A DNA stretch of 64,000 bases from a bacterium (GTDB lineage Bacteria > Verrucomicrobiota > Lentisphaeria > Victivallales > GWF2-38-69): assembly GCA_021781705.1 (NCBI GenBank), contig JAJXWI010000003.1, positions 2,919 to 66,918 on the forward strand, read 5' to 3'. The notes beneath the pieces were generated by a model. It did no database searches, had not been told where the DNA came from, and saw only the letters and a program-made list of their open reading frames with translations. Every line of letters starts with the position of its first letter. Position 1 is the first letter of the stretch. Below are positions 49,203-62,390 of this stretch, one piece after another. The position numbers were made by a program, and so were the translations under genes.

Positions 49203-49307
49203 CCCGGTTTTTTGAACACCCAAATGGCTTTTAATCATTAGGTGGGTTATACTAATGTCGCGTCGGGAATAAATGCTGAATGGAGTGTTGATAGTTCAGT
49301 AAAGCAT

Positions 49308-49410
49308 GTGGAGGGGCGAGCTTCGTCTCGTCCGCCCTTATTTTCGGCTCCGACGAAGCGGAGCCCTCCATCTCACTCACCAGTATTCGACATGTGCACA
49401 TAGTTTGGGG
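49308..49410 (+). repeat. Repeat module I (GTGGAGGG-bounded double hairpin + tail), copy 1
   Basis: Outer stem TGGAGGG/CCCTCCA enclosing GCGAG-CTTCGT-CTCGT and GGCTCCG-ACGAAG-CGGAGCC; a second copy lies at 61967-62078. Confidence 0.75.
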
Positions 49411-51017: not shown

Positions 51018-51031
51018 TTTTCTTTTCACGA

Positions 51032-51129
51032 ACAGATCGCCGAGCTGTCCGTTTGGTGTGTGCGCATACTTCACTAAACCCTTAACCTCCATCTCATTCA
51101 CCAGGATTTAATATTTGCGCATAGTTTGA
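51032..51129 (+). repeat. Partial repeat modules F and I-tail downstream of the tRNA
   Basis: ACAGATCGCCGAGCTGTCC (module F hairpin without the GGTAGGG core) and ...cctccatctcattcaccag...gcgcatagtttg, which matches the 49365-49408 tail. Confidence 0.6.
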
Positions 51130-52385: not shown

Positions 52386-52441
52386 CATAGTTCATAGTTG
52401 GTAGTTGGTAGTTGGTAGTTGGTAGTTGGTGGTTGGTGGAG
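52386..52441 (+). repeat. 7-bp tandem tract (CATAGTT x2, GGTAGTT x4, GGTGGTT, GGTGGAG)
   Basis: Eight consecutive heptamers starting 20 nt after the arnB stop. Confidence 0.85.
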
Positions 52442-52444
52442 GAT

Positions 52445-52470
52445 GGTAGGGACGGCTCGCCGAGCCGTCC
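52445..52470 (+). repeat. REP-like unit: GGTAGGG core + GGACGGCTCG/CGAGCCGTCC palindrome
   Basis: 10-bp arms read directly; same architecture as module F copies. Confidence 0.8.
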
Positions 52471-52500
52471 GGTAAAAGAAGATAGATAAATATTCACTAA

Positions 52501-52771
52501 TATATTTATGTTCTAGCCACTGGCGTGAGCCCGTGGAAAACTTTATCACATAAAAATCAAGCCCTCATGCAGGGAGTGGCGACACTTTGAGTTTTTTCTC
52601 CAACACATTTCCCCGCAAAATACTAAAAAAAGAAATCAGTCGTTTTGAGGTTGCTAACATCTTTATCTGAATTCTTACCCGCCAACTGGTTCACTGGTTC
52701 ACCAGTATAAACGGACAGCTCGGCGATCTGTCCCTACCAAGACTCACTACGATCCACCATCTACGACCCAC
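52501..52771 (+). repeat. ~270-bp composite intergenic repeat, copy a
   Basis: Module order A (ctagCCACTGGCGTGAGCCCGTGG), B (CCCTCATGCAGGG...), C, D, E, F (GGACAGCTCGGCGATCTGTCCCTACC), heptamer tail; ends at the fbaB stop codon. Confidence 0.85.
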
Positions 52772-53824
52772 TCACGCAATCGTGATGGTATTATCGAGAT
52801 ATACATCCTGGACTGCCTGGATAAGCTTAATTCCCTCTTCCATCGGCTTCTGGAATGCTTTTCTTCCCATTATTAGCCCTGTGCCGCCGGCGCGTTTGTT
52901 TATAACTGCTGTTTTAACGGCTTCCTTGAGGTCATTGGTTCCCGATGCTCCGCCGGAGTTTATAAGTCCTATTCTGCCCATGTAGCAGTTAGCCACCTGG
53001 TATCTGGTCAAGTCTATTGGATGGGTTGTAGTTAATTTTGAGTAAACCAGGGAGCTGGTTTTTCCGAATTTTACAGCATTGTACCCGCCATTGTTTGTCG
53101 GGAGTTTTTGTTTTATTATATCGGCCTTAATGGTAACGCCCAGATGGTTAGCCTGTCCTGTTAGGTCCGCTGATTCTTCGTAATTAACTTCGCCCACCTT
53201 GAAAGCATTATTTCTCAAGTAGCACCATAAAACTGTGAACATTCCCAGGGCGTGGGCTTTTTCAAATGCTTTTGAAACTTCTTCTATCTGCCGCCTCGAC
53301 TCAGGAGAACCGAAGTAGATGGTTGCGCCTATGCCTGCTGCGCCCATGTTGAAGGCATCTTCTATCGAGGCGAAGAGCTTCTGGTCGTAGGTATTCGGGT
53401 ACGAAAGAATCTCATTATGATTTATTTTTAACAAAAAAGGGATTTTATGCGCGTATTTTCTAGCGACTGATGCCAAAACGCCTAGTGTCGAAGCTACGGC
53501 GTTGCATTCGGCCTCAATAGCCAGCTTTACTATGTTTTCAGGATCAAAATAGATTGGATTTGGTGCAAATGAGGCTCCTCCCGAGTGTTCTATCCCTTGG
53601 TCTACAGGAAGTATCGAGAGGTATCCCGTTCCTGCAAGACGTCCGGTATTATACAATAATTGAAGGTTCCTAAGAACATTTATAGGCCTGTCTGACGGAG
53701 CAAAAACTTTATCCACAAAATCTCCCGACGGCAGATGAAGCATTTCTTTTGGAATAGCGGTGCACTTGTGGGTTAATAGAAATTCTTTTTCTTCTCCCAG
53801 AACATCGCAGACATTGATTCCCAT
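52772..53824 (-). CDS. fbaB: Class I fructose-bisphosphate aldolase (FbaB/DhnA type)
   Basis: Long colinear match to E. coli FbaB as remembered ([40 protein letters not shown]...). Confidence 0.9.
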
Positions 53825-54105
53825 ATTTCCTCCTGTTTTTACGGGTTGGATTTTTTGAAAGGCCAGAGATTTTAAAATCTATAGTCCGATTATAGCTTGA
53901 GAAGTATAAAATTTTCATCAGCTGTGCGAATTTTTTTTTAAATACTCAAAGTTTAGGGTTTCAAACAGCTTGATTTTCTCACACGGAGGCACAACGGTAC
54001 AAAGATTTCTCTCTGTGGTGAAAATGATCTTCCCAGCACCTTTGAGTGCCGGTATTCTTTTTAAGCATTTATGTCGCAACTCCTTTTAGGAGAGCTTGGT
54101 TATGG

Positions 54106-54422
54106 CTCTTTTTTCTATTCCACGGGCTCACGCCCATGGCTAACATGTCTATTATATTTATATTCTAGCCACGGGCGTGAGCCCGTGGAAAACTTTATCA
54201 CATAAAGATCAAGCCCTCATGCAGGGAGTGGCGACACTTTTAGTTTTAGCAAGGTTGTCGGAACCGTAAAATACTAAAAAAGAAATCAGCCGTTTTGAGG
54301 GTGGTAACATCTTTATCTGAATTCTTACTCGCCAACTGGTTCACTGGTTAGCCTGTTCACCAACATTATCGGACAGCTCGGCGATCTGTCCCTACCCAGA
54401 CCAACCACGATTCATGAACCAA
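54106..54422 (+). repeat. Composite intergenic repeat, copy b, with an extra inverted A hairpin at its left end
   Basis: 54153-54422 aligns with copy a. 54106-54253 is nearly identical to the reverse complement of 60322-60471. Ends at the stop of the 54423 gene. Confidence 0.85.
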
Positions 54423-55265
54423 CTACTCCTGCCCCCTATTTCCAATGTATACCATTTTTGTGAACGTTACTTGACGGCTTGTTCTGAATGCCTGAGCGGC
54501 TGGAGTTTCATTTGCCGGATAAACATTGGCACCTTGGAGTTTTATCCATTTCTGCCATGAGTCTTTATCCATTACTGTCAGATCAACAGTAACTACAGAA
54601 GGAAAAGGAGTTGGTGAAGGAGCAGTAGTACTTATATCAGGATTAATAATCGTACTAGTATCAGTACCTGTAGCACAAGTAAAAGAGAGGTCTATGACAT
54701 AAGGAATAAGTTTCTGGTAAGCTTCTGACGAGTTAGAATTTGCAGTAAAGGCCGATGTATCAGCTGCGAATCCCACTGTAAGATTATTAAGGTAGTTCCA
54801 TTTTGGATTATCACTGCCATCTGAATTCTTGTCGCCTGTAACGCTTCTTCTGACCCATCCCTCATTTGCGTCATGATTAGTCGCATAATAGAGTTGATAT
54901 TTTACTTCACAAAGAGTGGACGCACACTCAGAATTAGGAGGGATTGGTGTATCTGCTACAAATGCCAGCAATTCGTTCCTATACTCACCCCAGCCAGCCG
55001 GCCGGCCGCCATTCCAGTGCCAAAAAGGAGCAGAACCTTCACCATGATAAGCGCTTTCGAGATCCCTTGAAATCAGGTCTAGAGCTATACGTGCATCTTC
55101 AAAGGTTGATCTTTTTGCATCCGTTGTAGTCCAAGTGTTTTGCGCAGTTGAAAAAAAATGAAATGCTACAAGGATCAGGACTGAAAAAACAGCCATAACA
55201 GCCAGCAATTCAACTAAGGAAAAATACTTCCGTTTTGTCTTATCTTTCATAAATCTGGCTTTCAT
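54423..55265 (-). CDS. GspJ/PulJ-like minor pseudopilin
   Basis: GGAG 7 nt before the Met at 55265; MKARFMKDKTKRKY-FSLVELLAVMAVFSVLILVAF prepilin-type hydrophobic N-terminus; ARIALDLISRDLESA resembles GspJ. Confidence 0.65.
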   Translation of the reverse strand: MKARFMKDKTKRKYFSLVELLAVMAVFSVLILVAFHFFSTAQNTWTTTDAKRSTFEDARIALDLISRDLESAYHGEGSAPFWHWNGGRPAGWGEYRNELLAFVADTPIPPNSECASTLCEVKYQLYYATNHDANEGWVRRSVTGDKNSDGSDNPKWNYLNNLTVGFAADTSAFTANSNSSEAYQKLIPYVIDLSFTCATGTDTSTIINPDISTTAPSPTPFPSVVTVDLTVMDKDSWQKWIKLQGANVYPANETPAAQAFRTSRQVTFTKMVYIGNRGQE

Positions 55266-55331
55266 TAGAAACTCCAATAACTACCCAGTTTCCCGGCAAG
55301 TCCTTCAGCAAAGGACGTCATTAAGTCTATC

Positions 55332-55356
55332 AGACAGCTCGGCGATCTGTCCCTAC
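55332..55356 (-). repeat. Solo REP-like module F inside the pseudopilin operon
   Basis: GACAGCTCGGCGATCTGTCCCTACC; on the gene-sense (minus) strand this is GGTAGGG + hairpin, between the 55522 stop and the 55265 start. Confidence 0.75.
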
Positions 55357-55521
55357 CTAATTGTTTTCCCAAGGTTTTCTTATAGCAGGGCGTCCTTCTT
55401 TTACCACTTATTTCACTAAATACTTATCTCCGCTCGTAACTAGAATATACACCGAAGGTTAAAGAAACAAAGGAGCTCCTTACAAAACAGAAACAACTTT
55501 CCCAATTTTTATAAATACTAA

Positions 55522-58176
55522 CTAGTCAGACAGATAAATAAATCTCTTAACGTAGAACTTGCTGGGCGAGGTTGTGAAGTCACGTTTAATAATTGCAAGA
55601 ATCTTCTGAGACGCCAATATCTCATCGGCGTTGGGATCATAAACACTTGTATCTGTAGGAGTTGAAAGAGATTTTCCATATCTATCAAAACGAGTTCCTC
55701 CAATATCTCTAATAGCCTCCCCAACAGCTATTACAGTGTATTCTTCAGGAGACTCAGCCTTTGTAAGATTTATGAATTTTCCAATGAATTCTTCTTTCGT
55801 AGCATCCGTAGTACCCGTTGTCAACAAGTTCGCAACCGTCGTGTTGTTTAAGGTGTTAGCTCTTGTAGTAAAAGCCGTTCCTGTTCCCTGACTGCCGTTA
55901 ACAGCTATTATATTATTCGCAATAGTATTTGCAGTTGTCACACTCGTAGCAGTCCCTCCAGAGCCTGGATTGTCCTTGCTGCTGCCTATTTTTATATTAT
56001 CGAACAATGTTCTCAGAACGGATTGATTATCAGAATTTAGATTAATTTTTCCAAGGGTCGTAGTCCTTGATGTCATTTTTACCTGATCGAGGATGTTAGC
56101 ATCTCCATCATCATAATTATTTCCTCCTGCTCCCACATTAACGCCTTCAGTTGTGTTATATTTCTTTAGATTTAAAGTTTGGAATGCTTTAGCTCTGTGA
56201 ATTAATCCTAACTCCCATGGAGACTTCATGGGCGCATTCCGAATATACGCAGTAGATATTAGATAAGGATATGTTGCTGAAGGCTCGGGATCTGTAGAGC
56301 CTCCTGGATTTGGTGCAAAAACTGTGTTATTAGCAGTCAAACTTGGAGGAGGAGTAGAAGAAGTAGTAGTATAGGTCTTGAGACTCCAGTCGCTTGTAAG
56401 GGTATTCTGTCTTGGGTCATTTGTTTCATAAACGAAAATGAGCGTACCGGTAGTAGGAGTAGAAGAAGTACTTGATGCATTGGAAACTACCGGATACCAT
56501 GTAGTATTATTGTCAAATATGAAAGAATAATCATATAAATCTGCAGTCCCGGCGCCAAACAGCCTCACTTTTAGACTGTTTATTCTTGCCATTATTCTGG
56601 TATCAGCATAAGAACTGCTGGTAGTTGTAGTAAGGGTACGCACGGCATCTCTTTGAAGCGTATAGTTGATTGTAGGAAGAATAGACAGTGTCGTGTTTGA
56701 ATACCCATTACTAGTTGGTGCTGCTGAAGTTGTGAAAGGTGAAGACATGATTTCAAAGCTTTCAGAATCAAGTGTAGTTATTAAGGTTGGGGAACTGAAC
56801 TTTCCCCATTGAAGTTCAATGTCTTCCATGTCTACTTTAGCCTGTATTGACTTAGAAACTCCATACATATCTACGACTTGAACTGTATCTGCAATATTTT
56901 CAGTAGTAAATGTGTATATATAACGTCTACTTCCTCCCGAAAGTCCATTGGTTGCAACAACAATTTTTCCTGTAATAGACACCATAACACGATTTATATA
57001 GGGTACTTTTTCCAGTCCTATATAAGTGGGATCTGTATTAGTCCCGCTGTCAGTAGTAGGAATATCATTAGAATCGCAGTAATCTATTAAGTTGGCTATA
57101 ATCTGGCTTTGCGCAACACCCTTGTTAGCAAAACCACCTGAAGACTTCCAGCCGTTATCCCCAAGCCATGGTAAATAATTTGATTCACCAGATAAGGCAG
57201 TCATAAACTTTATGCCAGAAGCATTTCCTATTGAATTAACAGTTAATGTATCCCAGTCTGTTCTGGTAAGATTAAATCTATGATAGAATTCATTTGTATC
57301 TCTAATATTATCGTCGCTTACATCTACCCAAAAAGCCTCTGGATCTTCAAGCGCGTTTACATAAAATACTTTTCTAAAATAATCCCGTGTAGTATCATTA
57401 TTCGCTGCAATGCCAAGCGCATTAAAAATCTTTTCATAGTCTTTCCAGTTTCCTGCATTTCCAATAGGAACAAGCCCCGGCGGACTGCAGGTTGCAGCAC
57501 TCATTTTTTGAGTATATATAGCTGAAAATGCTGTTGTGTCAGCTTGCAACGAGGCCAGACTTAACTCAGTTAAATCCCTCCCTGGCCTGCCTACTACATA
57601 ATTGCCTGCAGTATCGACCGAAGTATTCCCCCCGCCATAGTTGAATTCAGACGGTGGCGTTATTCCCCACGAATCAGCATTAACACCTGAGTCTATCACT
57701 GCCCATGGATCAATCTTCCCTTTATCTGGAACAACAACATAAGCTATTCGTCCAATGATTGTTCCAGTGTCTGCCTGATTTGTCCTAAAATAAATCCACG
57801 AAACATTGGTAGTATCACTTGCTATACACCCGCTAGGATAATCAACAGGTAAAGAATAGTATGTGATTCCATTAATAACCGTGGTAAGTTTTGAAGCAAG
57901 AGATTCCGTGTCAGCATTGGTCCATGATGTCATATCGCTGCGATGACTCACTATATTACTGAAGCTTTCCTGTGGATTAGTGCTCGCACTCTTCATTAAT
58001 GCCACAGCCCTATTAAAAGCCGTTTGTGCAGCAACTCTTGCAGAAACTATATTCTGGTAGTTTGACGATGCTTTTTTTTCGACTATTGAAGTTGTCACAT
58101 AGGCAATACCCAAACAAAGAAGCAACGCCGTTATGCCTATTGCTAGAATTGTCGCTATACCATTTTCATTTTTCAT
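55522..58176 (-). CDS. Giant GspK/PilX-like minor pseudopilin (~885 aa)
   Basis: Start moved to the ATG at 58176 (MKNENGIATILAIGITALLLCLGIAYV). GspK-like landmarks ANLIDYCDSNDIP and MKSPWELGLIH. The upstream extension in the track ORF is encoded by a terminator hairpin. Confidence 0.6.
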   Translation of the reverse strand: MKNENGIATILAIGITALLLCLGIAYVTTSIVEKKASSNYQNIVSARVAAQTAFNRAVALMKSASTNPQESFSNIVSHRSDMTSWTNADTESLASKLTTVINGITYYSLPVDYPSGCIASDTTNVSWIYFRTNQADTGTIIGRIAYVVVPDKGKIDPWAVIDSGVNADSWGITPPSEFNYGGGNTSVDTAGNYVVGRPGRDLTELSLASLQADTTAFSAIYTQKMSAATCSPPGLVPIGNAGNWKDYEKIFNALGIAANNDTTRDYFRKVFYVNALEDPEAFWVDVSDDNIRDTNEFYHRFNLTRTDWDTLTVNSIGNASGIKFMTALSGESNYLPWLGDNGWKSSGGFANKGVAQSQIIANLIDYCDSNDIPTTDSGTNTDPTYIGLEKVPYINRVMVSITGKIVVATNGLSGGSRRYIYTFTTENIADTVQVVDMYGVSKSIQAKVDMEDIELQWGKFSSPTLITTLDSESFEIMSSPFTTSAAPTSNGYSNTTLSILPTINYTLQRDAVRTLTTTTSSSYADTRIMARINSLKVRLFGAGTADLYDYSFIFDNNTTWYPVVSNASSTSSTPTTGTLIFVYETNDPRQNTLTSDWSLKTYTTTSSTPPPSLTANNTVFAPNPGGSTDPEPSATYPYLISTAYIRNAPMKSPWELGLIHRAKAFQTLNLKKYNTTEGVNVGAGGNNYDDGDANILDQVKMTSRTTTLGKINLNSDNQSVLRTLFDNIKIGSSKDNPGSGGTATSVTTANTIANNIIAVNGSQGTGTAFTTRANTLNNTTVANLLTTGTTDATKEEFIGKFINLTKAESPEEYTVIAVGEAIRDIGGTRFDRYGKSLSTPTDTSVYDPNADEILASQKILAIIKRDFTTSPSKFYVKRFIYLSD

Positions 58177-58198
58177 GGGGCATTTGCCATATTTTGAA

Positions 58199-58230
58199 AA
58201 AATTAAAAAGGCAGGAATTCTTTCCTGCCC
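58199..58230 (-). terminator. Intrinsic terminator between the first and second pseudopilin genes
   Basis: Minus strand GGCAGGAA-AGAA-TTCCTGCC then TTTTTAATTTTTT, starting ~17 nt after the 58247 stop. Confidence 0.65.
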
Positions 58231-58246
58231 CAAAAACCGTTTCCTC

Positions 58247-59836
58247 TCAAGAGGCACCTATACTGTTCAGGTCATAAACTTCAAAATAGTACCTCAGTTT
58301 ATTCCTCTTGCTGTAATCTGTCTGATGCAATGGCCAGCTAATTTCTACATTAACACCTACGCCAACAGTTTTCTCGCTTGTACTAGTTGTTGTTGCACCA
58401 GAAGGAGGCGTAACCGGAGTTCCACCATCAACCGTTACATTTCCATTAGATCCTTCAAGCATTTGAATGTACCAATTCCCGATCCCTCCAGAGGAACCGG
58501 CCTTCCATAGTTTAATTTTCAAAGAACCATTTGACGCGGCATTCATAACTACATTTTTTCCATCAATCAATACATTTTCGCCATTCAGTGCAAGATTAGC
58601 TTCATCTCCACTTTTAGTTCTCAAAACTAAGCTATTTGCAGAATAAGTTCCGGCAGTACTATCACTATTCTTTTTTAAGTCATCTCTTGTAAGATGTGTT
58701 CCATCGGACTTTGTCATATCAAAAGCATAATCACTATTAGTAGGATTTATACCTATTCCGCTTTCGCTTGTTTTAAGAGCACTAGTATCTGTTGGTGCAA
58801 GTGTGGCAACGAGAACAAGATCCTGCATATCATATGCCGAACTTTTTTTATCTTTTGTATAAAGTTCAAAGCCATAAATAACCTGATTATCCGCAAGTTT
58901 GATTTTTCCATCATTAGTTACGTAGTCCTTAACTACTGTTGAAAGGGGTAACTGCGTTCCATACGCATCTATAGTAGGAACAGGATCTCCATTTTTAAGA
59001 ACCCACACCTGATTGCTATCTGTTGATAAAACAGTTCCAGGATTATATTTGCCTTTCTTGTCTGTGTCATACTGGTCAGACTTAGCGCTGACTACAATAC
59101 TTGTTCCAACTGGAGCATTTTCTCCTGAAGGAGTCCAATTATACGAAGACTGAGTAAGAGGACCTGGAGGATTTGCAATAAATGCGGTCCCGTCGGGTTT
59201 TGTAAGAGGAGTTCCGTCAATTTTTGTAGCAGTTACACTGACAGTAACGTTGGGATTGGCTGGCTGCATATATACACCAAGACACTTAAAAGACACATTA
59301 ACCGGCGCAGTATTAGATACGGTTCCGCTTGAAATATTAAACTTAGGCGTTTCAGGAACCGGCGGCGGTTTATAAGCAATCACTTTTTCGTCTTGGCTAT
59401 ACGGTTTGCCCTGCCATATCAGTACTTGAGCGGAATAGTCCTGATCGCTTCTTGATGAAGTGCCTTTGGCTACTACGTAAACACCTTTGTTAGAGGTTGA
59501 ATACATATTATCTCTTCCAGAAATCTTATTTTCCAAGGCAGGCATCGCACTTACAATAAAACTAGGCGTATCAGAACCGTTTAGAAAAATCTTATCTCTT
59601 GAGGGTAATCCAATAATTCCTTTATCATCCCATAAGGCAGAATCTTTTGCCAGACTGGAAATATACGCATAAACATCATCGGCAAAAATCGCTGAATAAT
59701 TTTGCCCCATAGAATCTTTAGCTTGCTTCATTCCCACTGGGAAAAGCGTAATCACCGTGACCGCTCCGACAGCAAGTATACCAATTGCTAACGCGACCTC
59801 CACCATTGAGAACCATTTTTTCATAATCGTTTTCAT
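58247..59836 (-). CDS. Large pseudopilin-like protein (529 aa) with prepilin-type N-terminus
   Basis: GGGAGGTG RBS; MKTIMKKW-FSMVEVALAIGILAVGAVTVITLFPVG; Thr/Ser/Asn/Gly-rich beta-type remainder. Confidence 0.65.
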   Translation of the reverse strand: MKTIMKKWFSMVEVALAIGILAVGAVTVITLFPVGMKQAKDSMGQNYSAIFADDVYAYISSLAKDSALWDDKGIIGLPSRDKIFLNGSDTPSFIVSAMPALENKISGRDNMYSTSNKGVYVVAKGTSSRSDQDYSAQVLIWQGKPYSQDEKVIAYKPPPVPETPKFNISSGTVSNTAPVNVSFKCLGVYMQPANPNVTVSVTATKIDGTPLTKPDGTAFIANPPGPLTQSSYNWTPSGENAPVGTSIVVSAKSDQYDTDKKGKYNPGTVLSTDSNQVWVLKNGDPVPTIDAYGTQLPLSTVVKDYVTNDGKIKLADNQVIYGFELYTKDKKSSAYDMQDLVLVATLAPTDTSALKTSESGIGINPTNSDYAFDMTKSDGTHLTRDDLKKNSDSTAGTYSANSLVLRTKSGDEANLALNGENVLIDGKNVVMNAASNGSLKIKLWKAGSSGGIGNWYIQMLEGSNGNVTVDGGTPVTPPSGATTTSTSEKTVGVGVNVEISWPLHQTDYSKRNKLRYYFEVYDLNSIGAS

Positions 59837-60012
59837 TTCACACCTCCCGACCCCCTGTAGGTCATTTATAAATTAACAGTTTACGGAACCTCATTTTCGC
59901 CTCTTTTCTTCTTCTTTCCTACAATCTAATTATAACCATATCAATGAATAAATAAACAATGGGAAAGCGATTATGGGACAAAAATAACGATAAATATTTA
60001 ACTTCCTAATAA

Positions 60013-60050
60013 GTAGTTCGTGGTGGCATGGCTAAAGGAATCGCCCTACC
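60013..60050 (-). repeat. Heptamer-like tract + module H (ggctaaaggaatcgCCCTACC)
   Basis: Reverse complement GGTAGGGCGATTCCTTTAGCC matches 62249-62268 and 124-144. Confidence 0.65.
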
Positions 60051-60183
60051 AATAAGGCATAAATATTCACTACCATTTTTGATTTAAAATAATTATATAA
60101 CTTGTTTACATACAATAGATTGACTTGAATTGGCGCCATGTTATTGTTGTTTTTACGTAAACTATGACCAATACTCACACAGA

Positions 60184-60238
60184 GAAGGGAAGAGATTCAT
60201 TCTTTGTGTCGTTGTGCTTCCGTGTGAGAAAATTAAGC
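60184..60238. repeat. Module X long hairpin (CTCACACAGAGAA...TTCTTTGTGT...GTGTGAG)
   Basis: Self-complementary; its reverse complement matches 53973-54024 (ttctcacacgga.gcacaacg..acaaaga). Confidence 0.6.
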
Positions 60239-60321
60239 GCCGCATTTAACACCCTTCACTGAACTCTTACCGCTTCGACGGGCGGGGCTGAACGTATGCG
60301 GACGCAACGGTCTTGCTAAAA

Positions 60322-60471
60322 CTAAAAGTGTCGCCGCTCCCTGCATGGGGGCTTGATCTTTATGTGATAAAGTTTTCCACGGGCTCACGCCCGTGGCTAG
60401 AATATAAATATAATAGACACGTTAGCCATGGGCGTGAGCCCGTGGAATAGAAAAAAGAGACATTTTTATTA
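60322..60471 (-). repeat. Partial composite repeat (modules B + double A hairpin), inverted relative to copy b
   Basis: Reverse complement is almost base-for-base identical to 54106-54253. Confidence 0.85.
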
Positions 60472-60512: not shown

Positions 60513-60554
60513 CCCAAAACCCAAAACCCAAAACCCAAAACTTAAAACTTAACA
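60513..60554 (+). repeat. 7-bp tandem repeat (CCCAAAA)x4 followed by CTTAAAA and CTTAACA
   Basis: Read directly; ends 10 nt before the 60565 ATG. Confidence 0.9.
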
Positions 60555-60564
60555 CTAGAGACCC

Positions 60565-61884
60565 ATGAGCATCTTCAAATCTTATGATATTCGGGGGATA
60601 TATCCCTCACAGATAAACGAGGAAATCGTTGAAAAAATAGGCAGAGCTTTTGCTACTTACTTGAGTGCGAAGGAAATCGTTATCGGATACGATATGCGTA
60701 CGCATTCGAAGTCAATTTTCAAAGCTCTGGCAAAGGGTATCGTCTCAACCGGTGCGAATGTTATAAATATCGGGTTATGTTCAACGCCCATGATATATTT
60801 TGCAAACGGCACGCTTAAACCCGATGGGAGCATAATGATTACTGCTTCGCATAATACCGGAGAATGGAACGGCTTGAAGCTTTGTCGCGACAAAGCTATC
60901 CCAATAAGCGGAAAAACAGGCATTAAAGAGATAGAAAAAATTGTTTTTTCCGGGGTATGGAAAACTTCGAAAACAAAAGGTGTAGTTAAAGAACATGATA
61001 TCAGCGAAGCTTATGCGAAACATATAAGGAGTTTTTCAAAATTAACAAGAAAGCTCAAGGTAGTTGTTGACTTTGGGAACGCTGTTGGATCCATAGAGAT
61101 TAAAGGAATCAGAGATCTATTTGAAATAATTCCATTATACGAAGAACTTGATGGTACCTTTCCGAATCACGAAGCCAATCCTCTCGTTACTGAAACACTG
61201 CATGAATTGTGTCGGAAAGTAAAGGAAACAGGGGCTGATTTCGGGGCAGGTTTTGACGGGGACGCTGACCGTTGCGGGTTTGTAGACGACAATGGCGAAA
61301 TTATCCCGATGGACCTTTTTACTGCCCTTATAGCGGAAGATATTCTCAAGGGCGGGCCGCAAACTATTTTGTACGACCTTAGAAGCAGCAGGGTGGTTAA
61401 GGAATCTATTGAAGCTAATGGAGGTAGGGCCGTGATGTGCAGAGTGGGGCACTCATTTATAAAAGCCCAAATGAGAGAAACGAATGCCGCATTTGCCGGA
61501 GAACTTTCGGGCCATTACTATTTTAGAGAGAACTTTACGGCGGAGTCACAGGCTCTCGCTTTCCTTAAATTTGCCAATTTTATATGCGAAACTGGAAAAA
61601 CTGCATCAGAATTGCTTAGGCCATTAAGAAAATATTATGCTACCGGTGAAATAAACTCTGAAGTCAAGGATGTAAAAAGTGTTCTGAATAAAATCAGGCA
61701 AAAATATTCTGACGGAAAAATAGTGGAGCTTGATGGACTTACCGTGGAATACGATGATTGGTGGTTTAATGTGCGTAGTTCAAATACTGAACCACTGCTG
61801 AGGCTCAATCTTGAAGCATCAACAAAAGCCGACATGGAACAGAAACGCAATGAACTGCTTGCGGTGATAAGGGAAGAGGGGTGA
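60565..61884 (+). CDS. Phosphomannomutase/phosphoglucomutase
   Basis: SYDIRG start, phosphoserine loop TASHNTGEWNG, metal loop GFDGDADR, GELSGH sugar-binding loop. Confidence 0.9.
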   Translation: MSIFKSYDIRGIYPSQINEEIVEKIGRAFATYLSAKEIVIGYDMRTHSKSIFKALAKGIVSTGANVINIGLCSTPMIYFANGTLKPDGSIMITASHNTGEWNGLKLCRDKAIPISGKTGIKEIEKIVFSGVWKTSKTKGVVKEHDISEAYAKHIRSFSKLTRKLKVVVDFGNAVGSIEIKGIRDLFEIIPLYEELDGTFPNHEANPLVTETLHELCRKVKETGADFGAGFDGDADRCGFVDDNGEIIPMDLFTALIAEDILKGGPQTILYDLRSSRVVKESIEANGGRAVMCRVGHSFIKAQMRETNAAFAGELSGHYYFRENFTAESQALAFLKFANFICETGKTASELLRPLRKYYATGEINSEVKDVKSVLNKIRQKYSDGKIVELDGLTVEYDDWWFNVRSSNTEPLLRLNLEASTKADMEQKRNELLAVIREEG

Positions 61885-61966
61885 GTAGTTGATGGTTGAT
61901 AATTGATGGCGGGCTGTACGAGTTAACTAAACCATGTGCCAGCAGGGACATAGGTCGATCCATCGA

Positions 61967-62078
61967 GTGGAGGGACGAGCTTCGTCTCGTCCGCCTTTCT
62001 TTTCGGCCCCGACGACATTTCTAACACGCATGGTAAAAGCGGAACCCTCCACTTAAGTCATAATTTGCGTATGGTTTG
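61967..62078 (+). repeat. Repeat module I, copy 2 (second hairpin disrupted by extra sequence)
   Basis: GTGGAGGGACGAGCTTCGTCTCGTCCGCC...GGAACCCTCCAC...gcgtatggtttg aligns with 49308-49410. Confidence 0.75.
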
Positions 62079-62369
62079 TAGTTCGTGGCGGCTTGGGTAG
62101 GGACAGATCGCCGAGCTGTCCGATAATATTGGTGCACCAGTGCACCAGTTGGCGGGTAAGAATTCAGATAAAGATGTTACCAACCTCAAAACGGCTGATT
62201 TCTTTTTTTAGTATTTTGCGGTTCGTGGTTCATGGATCGTGGATCGTGGGTAGGGCGATTCCTTTAGCCTTGCTAAAACTCAAAGCGTCGCCACTCCCTG
62301 CATGAGGGCTTGATTTTTACGTTATAATCTTTTCCACGGGCTTACGCCCGTGGCTAGAATATAAATATA
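62079..62369 (-). repeat. Composite intergenic repeat, copy c (reverse orientation) with a nested ~48-bp insertion
   Basis: Equals the reverse complement of copy b. The exception is 62221-62268, where a heptamer tract + GGTAGGG + module H replaces ~10 bp. Confidence 0.85.
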
Positions 62370-62390
62370 AACTTATTAGCTGGCTCTTTG

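Follow-up and report, generated by a model that had tools for sequence, protein, structure and literature searches.

Known DNA inversion switches act at sites of 9-35 bp, usually have a dedicated recombinase gene adjacent to them, and invert a promoter or part of a gene. In fimS/FimBE, hin, the Bacteroides PS promoters, and C. difficile cwpV and flg, inverted repeats surround DNA that is linked to surface structures. Segments inverted between related genomes may also end in inverted dispersed repeats, such as insertion sequence (IS) copies, rrn operons, or clusters of repetitive extragenic palindromes (REPs). REPs carrying a GTAG tag lie mostly 3' of genes and are linked to REP-associated tyrosine transposases (RAYTs), also in bacteria of the Planctomycetes-Verrucomicrobia-Chlamydiae (PVC) group (Di Nocera et al. 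2013, PMC3733652; Bertels & Rainey 2011, PMC3116915). Acido-Lenti-1 (Rfam RF01687), from Acidobacteria and Lentisphaerae, was described as a candidate small RNA (sRNA) to which no function is assigned (Weinberg et al. 2010, PMC2864571). The stretch analysed here, referred to as the window, comprises 64,000 nt of contig JAJXWI010000003.1 (assembly GCA_021781705.1), and contains two inverted repeats of 152 nt, the left arm R2 and the right arm R3, on either side of an operon of three pseudopilin-like genes (the cassette). According to the original prediction, these repeats could support inversion of the operon, as an on/off or promoter-orientation switch. REP-type repeats, their inverted doublets (REPINs), and repeat-associated inversions are already known; here, a lineage-specific modular family of an apparent Lentisphaerota member marks the inversion of a 6-kb operon segment.

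A repeat search of the window gave the two arms as 97% complementary and 6058 nt apart. In the pairwise alignment, 148 of the 152 positions are identical, with four mismatches and no gaps (BLAST E = 6e-70), and the longest common exact run is about 71 nt. The predicted match, almost base for base around the operon, is therefore confirmed by 148/152, and the landmark strings quoted for it are present. The left arm lies where it was predicted; the right arm, placed at 60322-60471, is shifted by 8-10 nt, its position being 60312-60463. As predicted, the operon (54423-59836; 5414 nt; three minus-strand genes) and its 475-nt upstream region (59837-60311) are both between the arms.

Three sister species, whose aldolases are 92-94% identical to that of the window, keep the backbone from the phosphoglucomutase/phosphomannomutase gene (PGM) to the aldolase gene, have the cassette in the orientation opposite to that in the window, and do not have the repeats. 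In the frame of these relatives, the window reads PGM(-) pilB(+) pilA(+) pilC(+) aldolase(+). The first sister species (L132, where L-numbers are the locus or contig labels of this analysis; aldolase 92%, PGM 89%) has the order PGM(-) pilA(-) avd(-) pilC(-) pilB(-) aldolase(+). The second (ERZ1426827; aldolase 94%) has an L132-like order on two contigs and, like the window, DegT on the far side of the aldolase gene, the genes being identified by their length and Pfam domains. In the third (SRR22388267; aldolase 94%), pilB is divergent from the aldolase gene on one contig, and pilC, pilA and PGM are co-directional on another. Divergence of pilB from the aldolase gene was likewise found in L124 and L125. 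As judged from gene order, the cassette is shown to be inverted, between conserved flanks, in the lineage of the window only. More distant relatives (L126; aldolase 83%) have no cassette next to the aldolase gene, and are thus of no help with the polarity.

The intergenic regions of the relatives are 93-245 nt long, AT-rich, and free of the modules A, B, C, D and X that make up the repeat family; the spacer between the aldolase gene and DegT is 137 nt in the closest relative and 405 nt in the window. These comparisons show that the family filled every intergenic space of an 11-kb stretch, and that it is absent from the same spaces in the sister species. Since the spacers of the relatives are without the modules, the gain of the repeats fell in the same lineage as the rearrangement of the cassette. 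The two intergenic regions that bound the inverted cassette hold the arm pair. Together with the opposite cassette and the lack of repeats in the sister species, this means that the arms mark the ends of a historical inversion. It should be mentioned that the sister cassettes carry, between pilC and the large pilA-like gene, a gene for a 138-aa Avd-like protein (PF22296 bAvd/PF05635; L132:5152-5568 and the ERZ1426827 contig), hinting at a link to diversity-generating retroelements.

Each arm consists of a 16-nt flank, an inverted doublet of a short hairpin (hairpin A), and module B. The two doublets (73 nt) have 25-nt arms matching at 96% and a 23-nt spacer, and their hairpins are 49 nt apart from start to start. 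The left arm with its doublet has a predicted single-stranded DNA fold of -36.8 kcal/mol (z = -9.2), in which the doublet forms one long hairpin. Both doublets are therefore like REPINs in having two inverted REPs, a short spacer, and a possible single long hairpin. In REPINs the doublet is the replicating unit; in the window, however, there are only two doublets, and the other copies are singlets. Identity of the arms continues for 16 nt and about 63 nt past the doublet, and ends sharply at the junction of modules B and C (54253/54254). The extra first hairpin and the 16-nt flank were found only in the R2/R3 pair. The sequences flanking the arms on the outside do not match, and no direct duplication of a target site was found at the outer edges.

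Three other copies of the family bear hairpin A: R1, R4, and the distant R0. R1 pairs with R2 as a direct repeat and with R4 as an inverted one; R1 and R4 (52.5 and 62.2 kb) are the outer of two nested inverted pairs (126 nt at 94% and 95 nt at 92%). A 99-nt core is common to R1, R2, R3 and R4. Its identity is 98% between R2 and R3, 95% between R1 and R2, 93% between R1 and R3, and 87-89% in the pairs with R4. This means that R2 and R3 are the closest pair and not an outlier (Fisher p = 0.32 against R1-R2); the prediction that the arms resemble one another much more closely than other copies do was right about the closest pair and overstated the "much more". Unpaired repeats of equal identity at other loci had been named as evidence that would speak against a switch, and this was found halfway, the other copies being at 87-95%. 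R1, R2 and R4 share the same 25 nt at the centre of module B, from which R3 departs at two positions. Recent duplication or gene conversion of the arms is plausible.

Hairpin A is the 20-nt CCACGGGCTCACGCCCGTGG followed by CTA, or TAG plus palindrome on the opposite strand. With its 8-bp stem and 4-nt loop, it is a short, GC-rich, repeated intergenic palindrome, as REPs are. Its tag reads CTAG or TTAG in the window and GTAG in PVC loci (CCACGGG...GTGG-CTAC). Module B, on the reverse strand, is gtcgcc-ACTCCCTGCATGAGGG-ctt, a degenerate second hairpin. The 130-nt module C-D is present in R1, R2 and R4 (88-96% identical) and terminates in hairpin D, which on the gene strand is GGTAG-GGACAG-ATCGCCGAG-CTGTCC. 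A full unit, D-C-B-A, spans about 290 nt and has outward-facing tagged hairpins at its ends; full units sit just past the stop codons of the co-oriented aldolase, pilC and PGM genes, and R3 is the A-B end only. The window has seven copies of hairpin A, four of module B, three of C, six of D type, and two of X, all of them intergenic. They occupy every intergenic space from 51 to 62.4 kb, including DegT/aldolase, pilA/pilC and PGM/POR. The other 53 kb of the window, plus about 8 kb past its end, contain only one hairpin A copy and one T hairpin. In its modular build and shuffled module order, the family resembles the E. coli BIMEs, the pneumococcal BOX elements, and the Neisseria Correia elements.

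Nothing on the sequence of hairpin A itself was found in a literature search. The hairpin was also surveyed in other bacteria by exact match of the 20-mer, with one genome per species. Among the matches listed, it is present at more than 119 loci in many phyla, including Planctomycetota, Verrucomicrobiota, Lentisphaerota, Omnitrophota, Elusimicrobiota, Desulfobacterota, Acidobacteriota, Nitrospirota and the candidate phyla radiation; by a rough estimate, about one match would be expected by chance in such a collection. The 20-mer is at both ends of a gene for a 144-145-aa protein in L009 and L077, and beside a homologue of that gene in L028 and L120. In L013, L048 and L099, it flanks a more distant, RAYT-like homologue. 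The genes of L009, L077, L013 and L048 were identified by domain scan as Y1 transposases of the IS200 type (PF01797/NF033573), and those of L028, L120 and L099 were assigned by phmmer similarity only. In Desulfobacterota, there are derivatives of about 100 nt without tnpA that keep both end hairpins (L012, L038, L097). Since hairpin A flanks IS200-like and RAYT-like Y1 genes in these genomes, it is a REP-type element. On this sequence evidence, hairpins A and D may be read as REP-type elements and the doublet as REPIN-like.

The comparison with REP/RAYT systems holds for the short, GC-rich, TAG- or GTAG-tagged palindromes in intergenic regions, mostly 3' of genes, for their occurrence as singlets, inverted doublets and clusters, for the Y1 transposase genes flanked in other genomes, and for the exact GTAG tag of hairpin D. 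The window differs in that it has no RAYT and that the tag of hairpin A is CTAG or TTAG. In addition, the 152-nt unit exceeds a REPIN and has a non-palindromic flank, and the copies are clustered in 11 kb, not dispersed. With IS200/IS605 elements and their miniature derivatives (palindrome-associated transposable elements, PATEs), the likeness lies in the identical hairpin at both tnpA ends or next to tnpA and in the derivatives without tnpA described above; the hairpins of those elements are direct, whereas the doublets in the window are inverted and have no tnpA.

Hairpin A corresponds to hairpin 1 of Acido-Lenti-1. The window copies fit only this hairpin (the stem and the GCUCACGC loop region) and the CUA linker, and the host seems to belong to Lentisphaerota, one of the two founding phyla of the family. 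They are unlike the family in lacking the 3' second hairpin, the model positions of which are deleted in the best match; the degenerate module B lies about 23 nt to the 5' side instead. At the gathering threshold, Rfam gave two tRNAs only over the whole window; a sub-threshold match to RF01687 is at 60377-60409, and permissive matches to miRNA families were rejected as artefacts of the long palindrome. Hairpin A of PVC and acidobacterial loci, on the other hand, alternates with a second, covarying hairpin (gtcgCCCCCtgcGGGGGct and variants), and many of these loci exceed the RF01687 gathering score. In L013, three above-threshold matches lie 71-330 nt past the Y1 gene. Because hairpin 1 of Acido-Lenti-1 is shared with IS200-like ends and RAYT-like flanks, the family is best read as a REP-type, transposase-associated DNA/RNA element. 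By these sequence matches, Acido-Lenti-1 resembles a REP with a GTAG tag more than an sRNA standing on its own.

The arms might thus be the two youngest copies of a lineage-specific modular intergenic family of tagged, GC-rich REP-type hairpins, in which the A-B end is joined to hairpin D through module C, giving a composite of about 290 nt that resembles a miniature inverted-repeat transposable element and sits just 3' of a co-oriented gene. The following course of events is given a slightly better than even chance. Composite copies in inverted orientation would have recombined and flipped the cassette, by homologous recombination between them or in an event that also made the second copy. 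The inverted state would now be fixed, and the arms would be scars or substrates of the rearrangement, not a programmed switch. Judging from what is known of REPs and RAYTs, the spread of the family may be due to a Y1 transposase acting in trans from a gene elsewhere, to local recombination, or to both; transcribed copies would act, at most, as 3'-end hairpins.

Several observations weigh against this course of events. The order within the cassette is B-A-C in the window and B-C-avd-A in the relatives, and the avd-like gene is gone; the changed order means that the history was more than one clean flip. The intergenic DNA of the relatives gave no significant similarity to the window on alignment, so that the breakpoints can be placed only to two intergenic regions, not to the arms. 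The identity of R2 and R3 beyond the hairpins suits duplication at the DNA level more than REPIN transposition. As for the REP-type assignment, the hairpin A copies score at best 24.5 bits against the RF01687 gathering score of 37, their tag is CTAG or TTAG and not GTAG, and a Y1 transposase gene was not found in the window. The tight inverted doublet with 49 nt from start to start is absent among 182 hairpins elsewhere (at least 119 loci), where head-to-tail pairs dominate. Furthermore, module B had no matches in the JGI metagenomes. A scan of the JGI metagenomes for relatives of pilC returned only L124; the species of the window is absent there.

As predicted, module X is present on both sides in a different order relative to the arms, outside the left arm and inside the right one. 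Its two copies are 89% identical in a 38-nt core. The inversion event itself might have made the second arm and the second X, through breaks staggered to either side of X and of the A-B segment, or through hairpin template switching, that turned a-X-b...c-R-d into a-X-R'...X'-R-d. The order X(+) R2(+) ... X(-) R3(-) is exactly what staggered-break duplication predicts, and such an event would account for R3 without modules C-D, for the sharp end of identity at the B/C junction, and for the arms as the closest pair. However, the gaps between X and R, about 96 nt (54006-54101) and about 73 nt (60239-60311), are not duplicated and match nothing else. In addition, the X copies are far more diverged over their longer span (44/64) than the arms (148/152; Fisher p = 1e-8), which is unexpected at equal age unless the arms were homogenised by gene conversion. 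This version of the event is regarded as unlikely.

The distribution of the modules bears on a further explanation, which seems similarly unlikely: the cassette may have been rearranged by an unrelated mechanism, and the repeats then entered the enlarged spacers, the arms being alike through one recent master copy. Modules are also present in spaces off the inversion boundaries (DegT/aldolase, pilA/pilC, PGM/POR), and full composites are oriented with the upstream gene, so that their inverted arrangement could simply follow gene orientation. R3, however, has no co-oriented gene upstream, and the rule of a position 3' of genes fails to explain its orientation; moreover, the common 152-nt unit includes a non-hairpin flank that is limited to R2 and R3. 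Compared with known repeat-mediated inversions, recombination between composite copies, as favoured above, would share the inverted dispersed repeats at the ends of a segment inverted between related genomes. It would differ in its small scale (6 kb) and in a repeat family gained only in this lineage; the mechanism may be RecA or event-coupled duplication.

The orientation of the segment within the species was judged from contigs. Identical proteins are encoded on 6-9 contigs from NCBI (GCA_027452705.1), ENA and Logan, and the contigs with DNA are 99.96-100% identical to the window. Besides the window, two independent long contigs whose DNA was read (a metagenome-assembled genome (MAG) contig at NCBI and a MEGAHIT k141 contig at ENA) span both arms, and all are in one orientation. 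As the arms have no exact run in common that is longer than about 71 nt, k = 141 resolves them, and k141 contigs of 22-83 kb pass through the arms, which argues for one dominant orientation. The Logan contigs L003, L129 and L130 end at or near repeat modules and are uninformative on orientation. The strain and metagenome comparison suggested with the original prediction has thus given one orientation in the long contigs and the opposite cassette orientation in the sister species. Position 54217, in module B of the left arm, is T versus G between the window and the NCBI MAG contig, the sole difference over 13 kb; it also differs between the arms (C in the right arm).

An active invertible element, in which the 6-kb segment flips through RecA on the 152-bp homology or through a distant recombinase and causes phase variation of a surface structure, is considered very unlikely. 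Long inverted repeats at 97% around a surface-appendage operon, as in known switches, and a cassette inverted at least once in the clade would fit it; moreover, both cassette-bearing Logan contigs start or end in repeat modules (X or the R3 region; D also in L129), which would mean that assembly graphs branch there. However, Logan contigs break at multi-copy k-mers, as is expected for any repeat, and the NCBI and ENA long contigs cross both arms unbroken. The arms are also much longer than known invertase sites. The whole operon and the 475 nt upstream of it are inside the segment, and a flip would therefore not part the promoter from the genes. A nearby invertase or recombinase, which had been suggested as a target for search, was not found within about 72 kb: domains of recombinases, invertases (serine or tyrosine) or transposases were absent from the 37 open reading frames (ORFs) of the window searched with Pfam, from the precomputed domains of five genes at 42.4-49.2 kb, and from genes lying within 8 kb after the end of the window. 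Of the predicted inversion, the past event is thus borne out, and the on/off or promoter-orientation switch is not. Nothing indicates a working switch; low-frequency flipping by homologous recombination is possible.

A further variant, in which the arms are working sites of hairpin-based inversion, the REP doublets being cut and rejoined by an HUH enzyme of the Y1 (RAYT) type whose gene lies elsewhere, or RecA using them at a useful rate, is given very little credence. If it were true, the cassette would alternate between states divergent from the aldolase gene and from PGM, leading to heterogeneity of surface appendages in an uncultured Lentisphaerota population, and this would be a new type of inversion switch independent of serine and tyrosine invertases.

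The position of the hairpins relative to genes raises the question of an RNA function. All six D-type hairpins are 3' of a co-oriented gene, including a tRNA (51030), DegT (52444) and pilA (55332), as are four of the five copies bearing hairpin A. The motif GGTAG-GGACAG..CTGTCC, with the exact GTAG tag, is in five of the six D copies. As 55328-55357 repeats 54367-54396 at 29/30, pilC is bracketed by D hairpins. The positions of the D-type hairpins suggest a possible role at RNA 3' ends, or insertion coupled to transcription. That the arms are mainly functional RNA or regulatory elements (an Acido-Lenti-1-type sRNA, a stabiliser or terminator in the 3' untranslated region, or outward promoters for the aldolase gene and PGM), kept similar by selection, is nevertheless held to be quite improbable. 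The sub-threshold RF01687 matches, the positions 3' of genes, and a strong predicted RNA fold of the minus strand at 54102-54420 (pilC stop, D, C, B and hairpin A; z = -6.4) are in line with it, and hairpin A contains a weak sigma-70-like TTTCCA-18-TAGAAT, directed towards PGM in R3 and towards the aldolase gene in R2. But the 3' second hairpin demanded by the Rfam model is missing, and the relatives manage without any of the modules. In a consensus scan, promoter-like matches (31 against 27.8 in shuffles) were not more frequent than in shuffled sequence, and terminator-like matches were weak. An RNA or regulatory role is not exclusive of the recombination of composite copies favoured above.

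The positions of the repeats and genes are collected in Table 1. The three cassette genes have no Pfam match. Their TIGR scores, to which only the N-termini contribute, are 46.5 bits for TIGR02599 (cut-off 256.5), 30.4 for TIGR02598 (51.4) and 15.5 for TIGR02532 (16.3). Prepilin-type N-termini are found in two of the three (KYFSLVELL and KWFSMVEV), and homologues of pilC in Lentisphaerota/Victivallales MAGs are named type II secretion system protein, some with PF07963. From these matches, "pseudopilin operon" seems a fair label. The best named relatives are Lentisphaeria, and the host appears to be a member of Lentisphaerota. The GC content of the cassette (0.40-0.42) is like that of its neighbours, without a compositional break; horizontal transfer of the segment was rejected, as its GC content matches the neighbours. 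The operon as a mobilised unit, also proposed originally, would be a composite transposon bounded by the arms. Although 152-bp inverted terminal repeats do surround a discrete cassette, the cassette is at the same locus by the aldolase gene (and PGM) in all close relatives, and a transposase, a target duplication and a compositional break are all lacking; this proposal is extremely unlikely and was abandoned.

Table 1. Positions of repeat copies, modules and genes in the window, and of hairpin A/Y1 loci in other genomes
Feature	Position	Strand	Description
Left arm R2	54102-54253	+	16-nt flank, inverted hairpin A doublet, then module B
Right arm R3	60312-60463	-	Inverted 152-nt unit of the left arm; no modules C-D; in the pilB/PGM divergent region
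REPIN-like doublet, left arm	54118-54190	+	Inverted hairpin A units 54120-54139 and 54169-54188; TAG tags inward; 23-nt AT-rich spacer
REPIN-like doublet, right arm	60375-60447	-	Hairpins 60377-60396 and 60426-60445
Module B of R2	54205-54237	+	Degenerate second hairpin, reverse complement gtcgccACTCCCTGCATGAGGGctt
Module B of R3	60328-60360	-	Two substitutions restore a 6-bp stem (GCTCCCTGCATGGGGGC)
Modules C+D of R2	54267-54396	+	Directly 3' of the pilC stop codon; D on gene strand GGTAG-GGACAG..CTGTCC
Copy R1	52486-52756	+	Single hairpin A (52517-52536) + B + C + D; A+B portion 52486-52600 (+); downstream of the aldolase gene
Copy R4	62093-62373	-	D + C + B + single hairpin A (62334-62353); A+B portion 62258-62373 (-); downstream of PGM
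Copy R0	36233-36296	+	Single hairpin A + AT-rich palindrome; right after the stop of ORF 35829-36233
D-type hairpins	51030-51050, 52444-52472, 52713-52738, 54371-54396, 55332-55357, 62096-62122
D-type variant	52444-52472	+	After DegT; GGTAG-GGACGG..CCGTCC, compensatory stem change
Isolated D hairpin	55328-55357	+	Between pilA and pilC; direct repeat of 54367-54396
Module X, left	53968-54005	+	144 nt upstream of the aldolase start codon
Module X, right	60201-60238	-	Inside the segment, between the pilB upstream region and R3
pilB-like gene	58247-59836	-	529 aa; N-terminus of prepilin type; matches Verru_Chthon cassette protein B below threshold
pilA-like gene	55522-58257	-	911 aa (884 aa if a later start is used); without a family match; 44-49% identical to the relatives' large cassette protein
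pilC-like pseudopilin gene	54423-55277	-	284 aa; its N-terminus matches, below threshold, Verru_Chthon cassette protein C, GspJ and HpsC
Class I fructose-bisphosphate aldolase gene (DeoC/LacD family)	52772-53824	-	Left backbone gene
Phosphoglucomutase/phosphomannomutase gene (PGM)	60565-61884	+	Right backbone gene
Hairpin A/Y1 loci	L009:5055-5591; L077:6679-7224; L013:4937-5736; L048:2990-3530		

Other repeats were observed in the same region. A third hairpin module, GGAGGGACGAGCTTCGTCTCGTCC with a T-rich tail, is at 49291-49356 and 61950-62015 (82% over 66 nt), after two plus-strand genes, and is the best terminator-like site downstream of PGM. A mini-module of 21-26 nt, GCTAAAGGAATCGCCCTACC, is at 60030-60050 (upstream of pilB), 62249-62269 (in R4) and 123-148 (at the far left end). 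Tandem tracts of heptamers cluster in the repeat-rich 10 kb: TAGTTGG six times at 52395-52437, CCCAAAA four times at 60513-60541, just upstream of the PGM start, GTTGATG three times at 61888-61909, and TCGTGGA four times at 62223-62249. The TAGTTGG tract is one unit shorter in the ENA contig L002, and so is not constant from sample to sample. In the relatives L132 and L134, stop codons are followed by comparable G/T-rich heptamer-like tracts. Elsewhere in the window, an 810-aa ORF (37372-39804) contains an internal tandem duplication of 1242 nt (segments 70-80% identical), for which no convincing family match was found. The 386-aa protein encoded at 24743-25903 carries at its C-terminus a MYND zinc finger (PF01753, E = 3e-10), which is usually found in eukaryotes.

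That Acido-Lenti-1 is tied to Y1 transposases in many phyla is a by-product of the work on the arms. It is a useful re-annotation, which may matter more to curators of RNA families, and it places the Acido-Lenti-1-type element far beyond Acidobacteria and Lentisphaerae. As for the locus itself, it gives a caution: the presence of long inverted repeats on both sides of surface-structure genes does not in itself speak for a switch. What looked like a lead to phase variation is now documented as a small, lineage-specific inversion of an operon with REP-type repeats at its ends.

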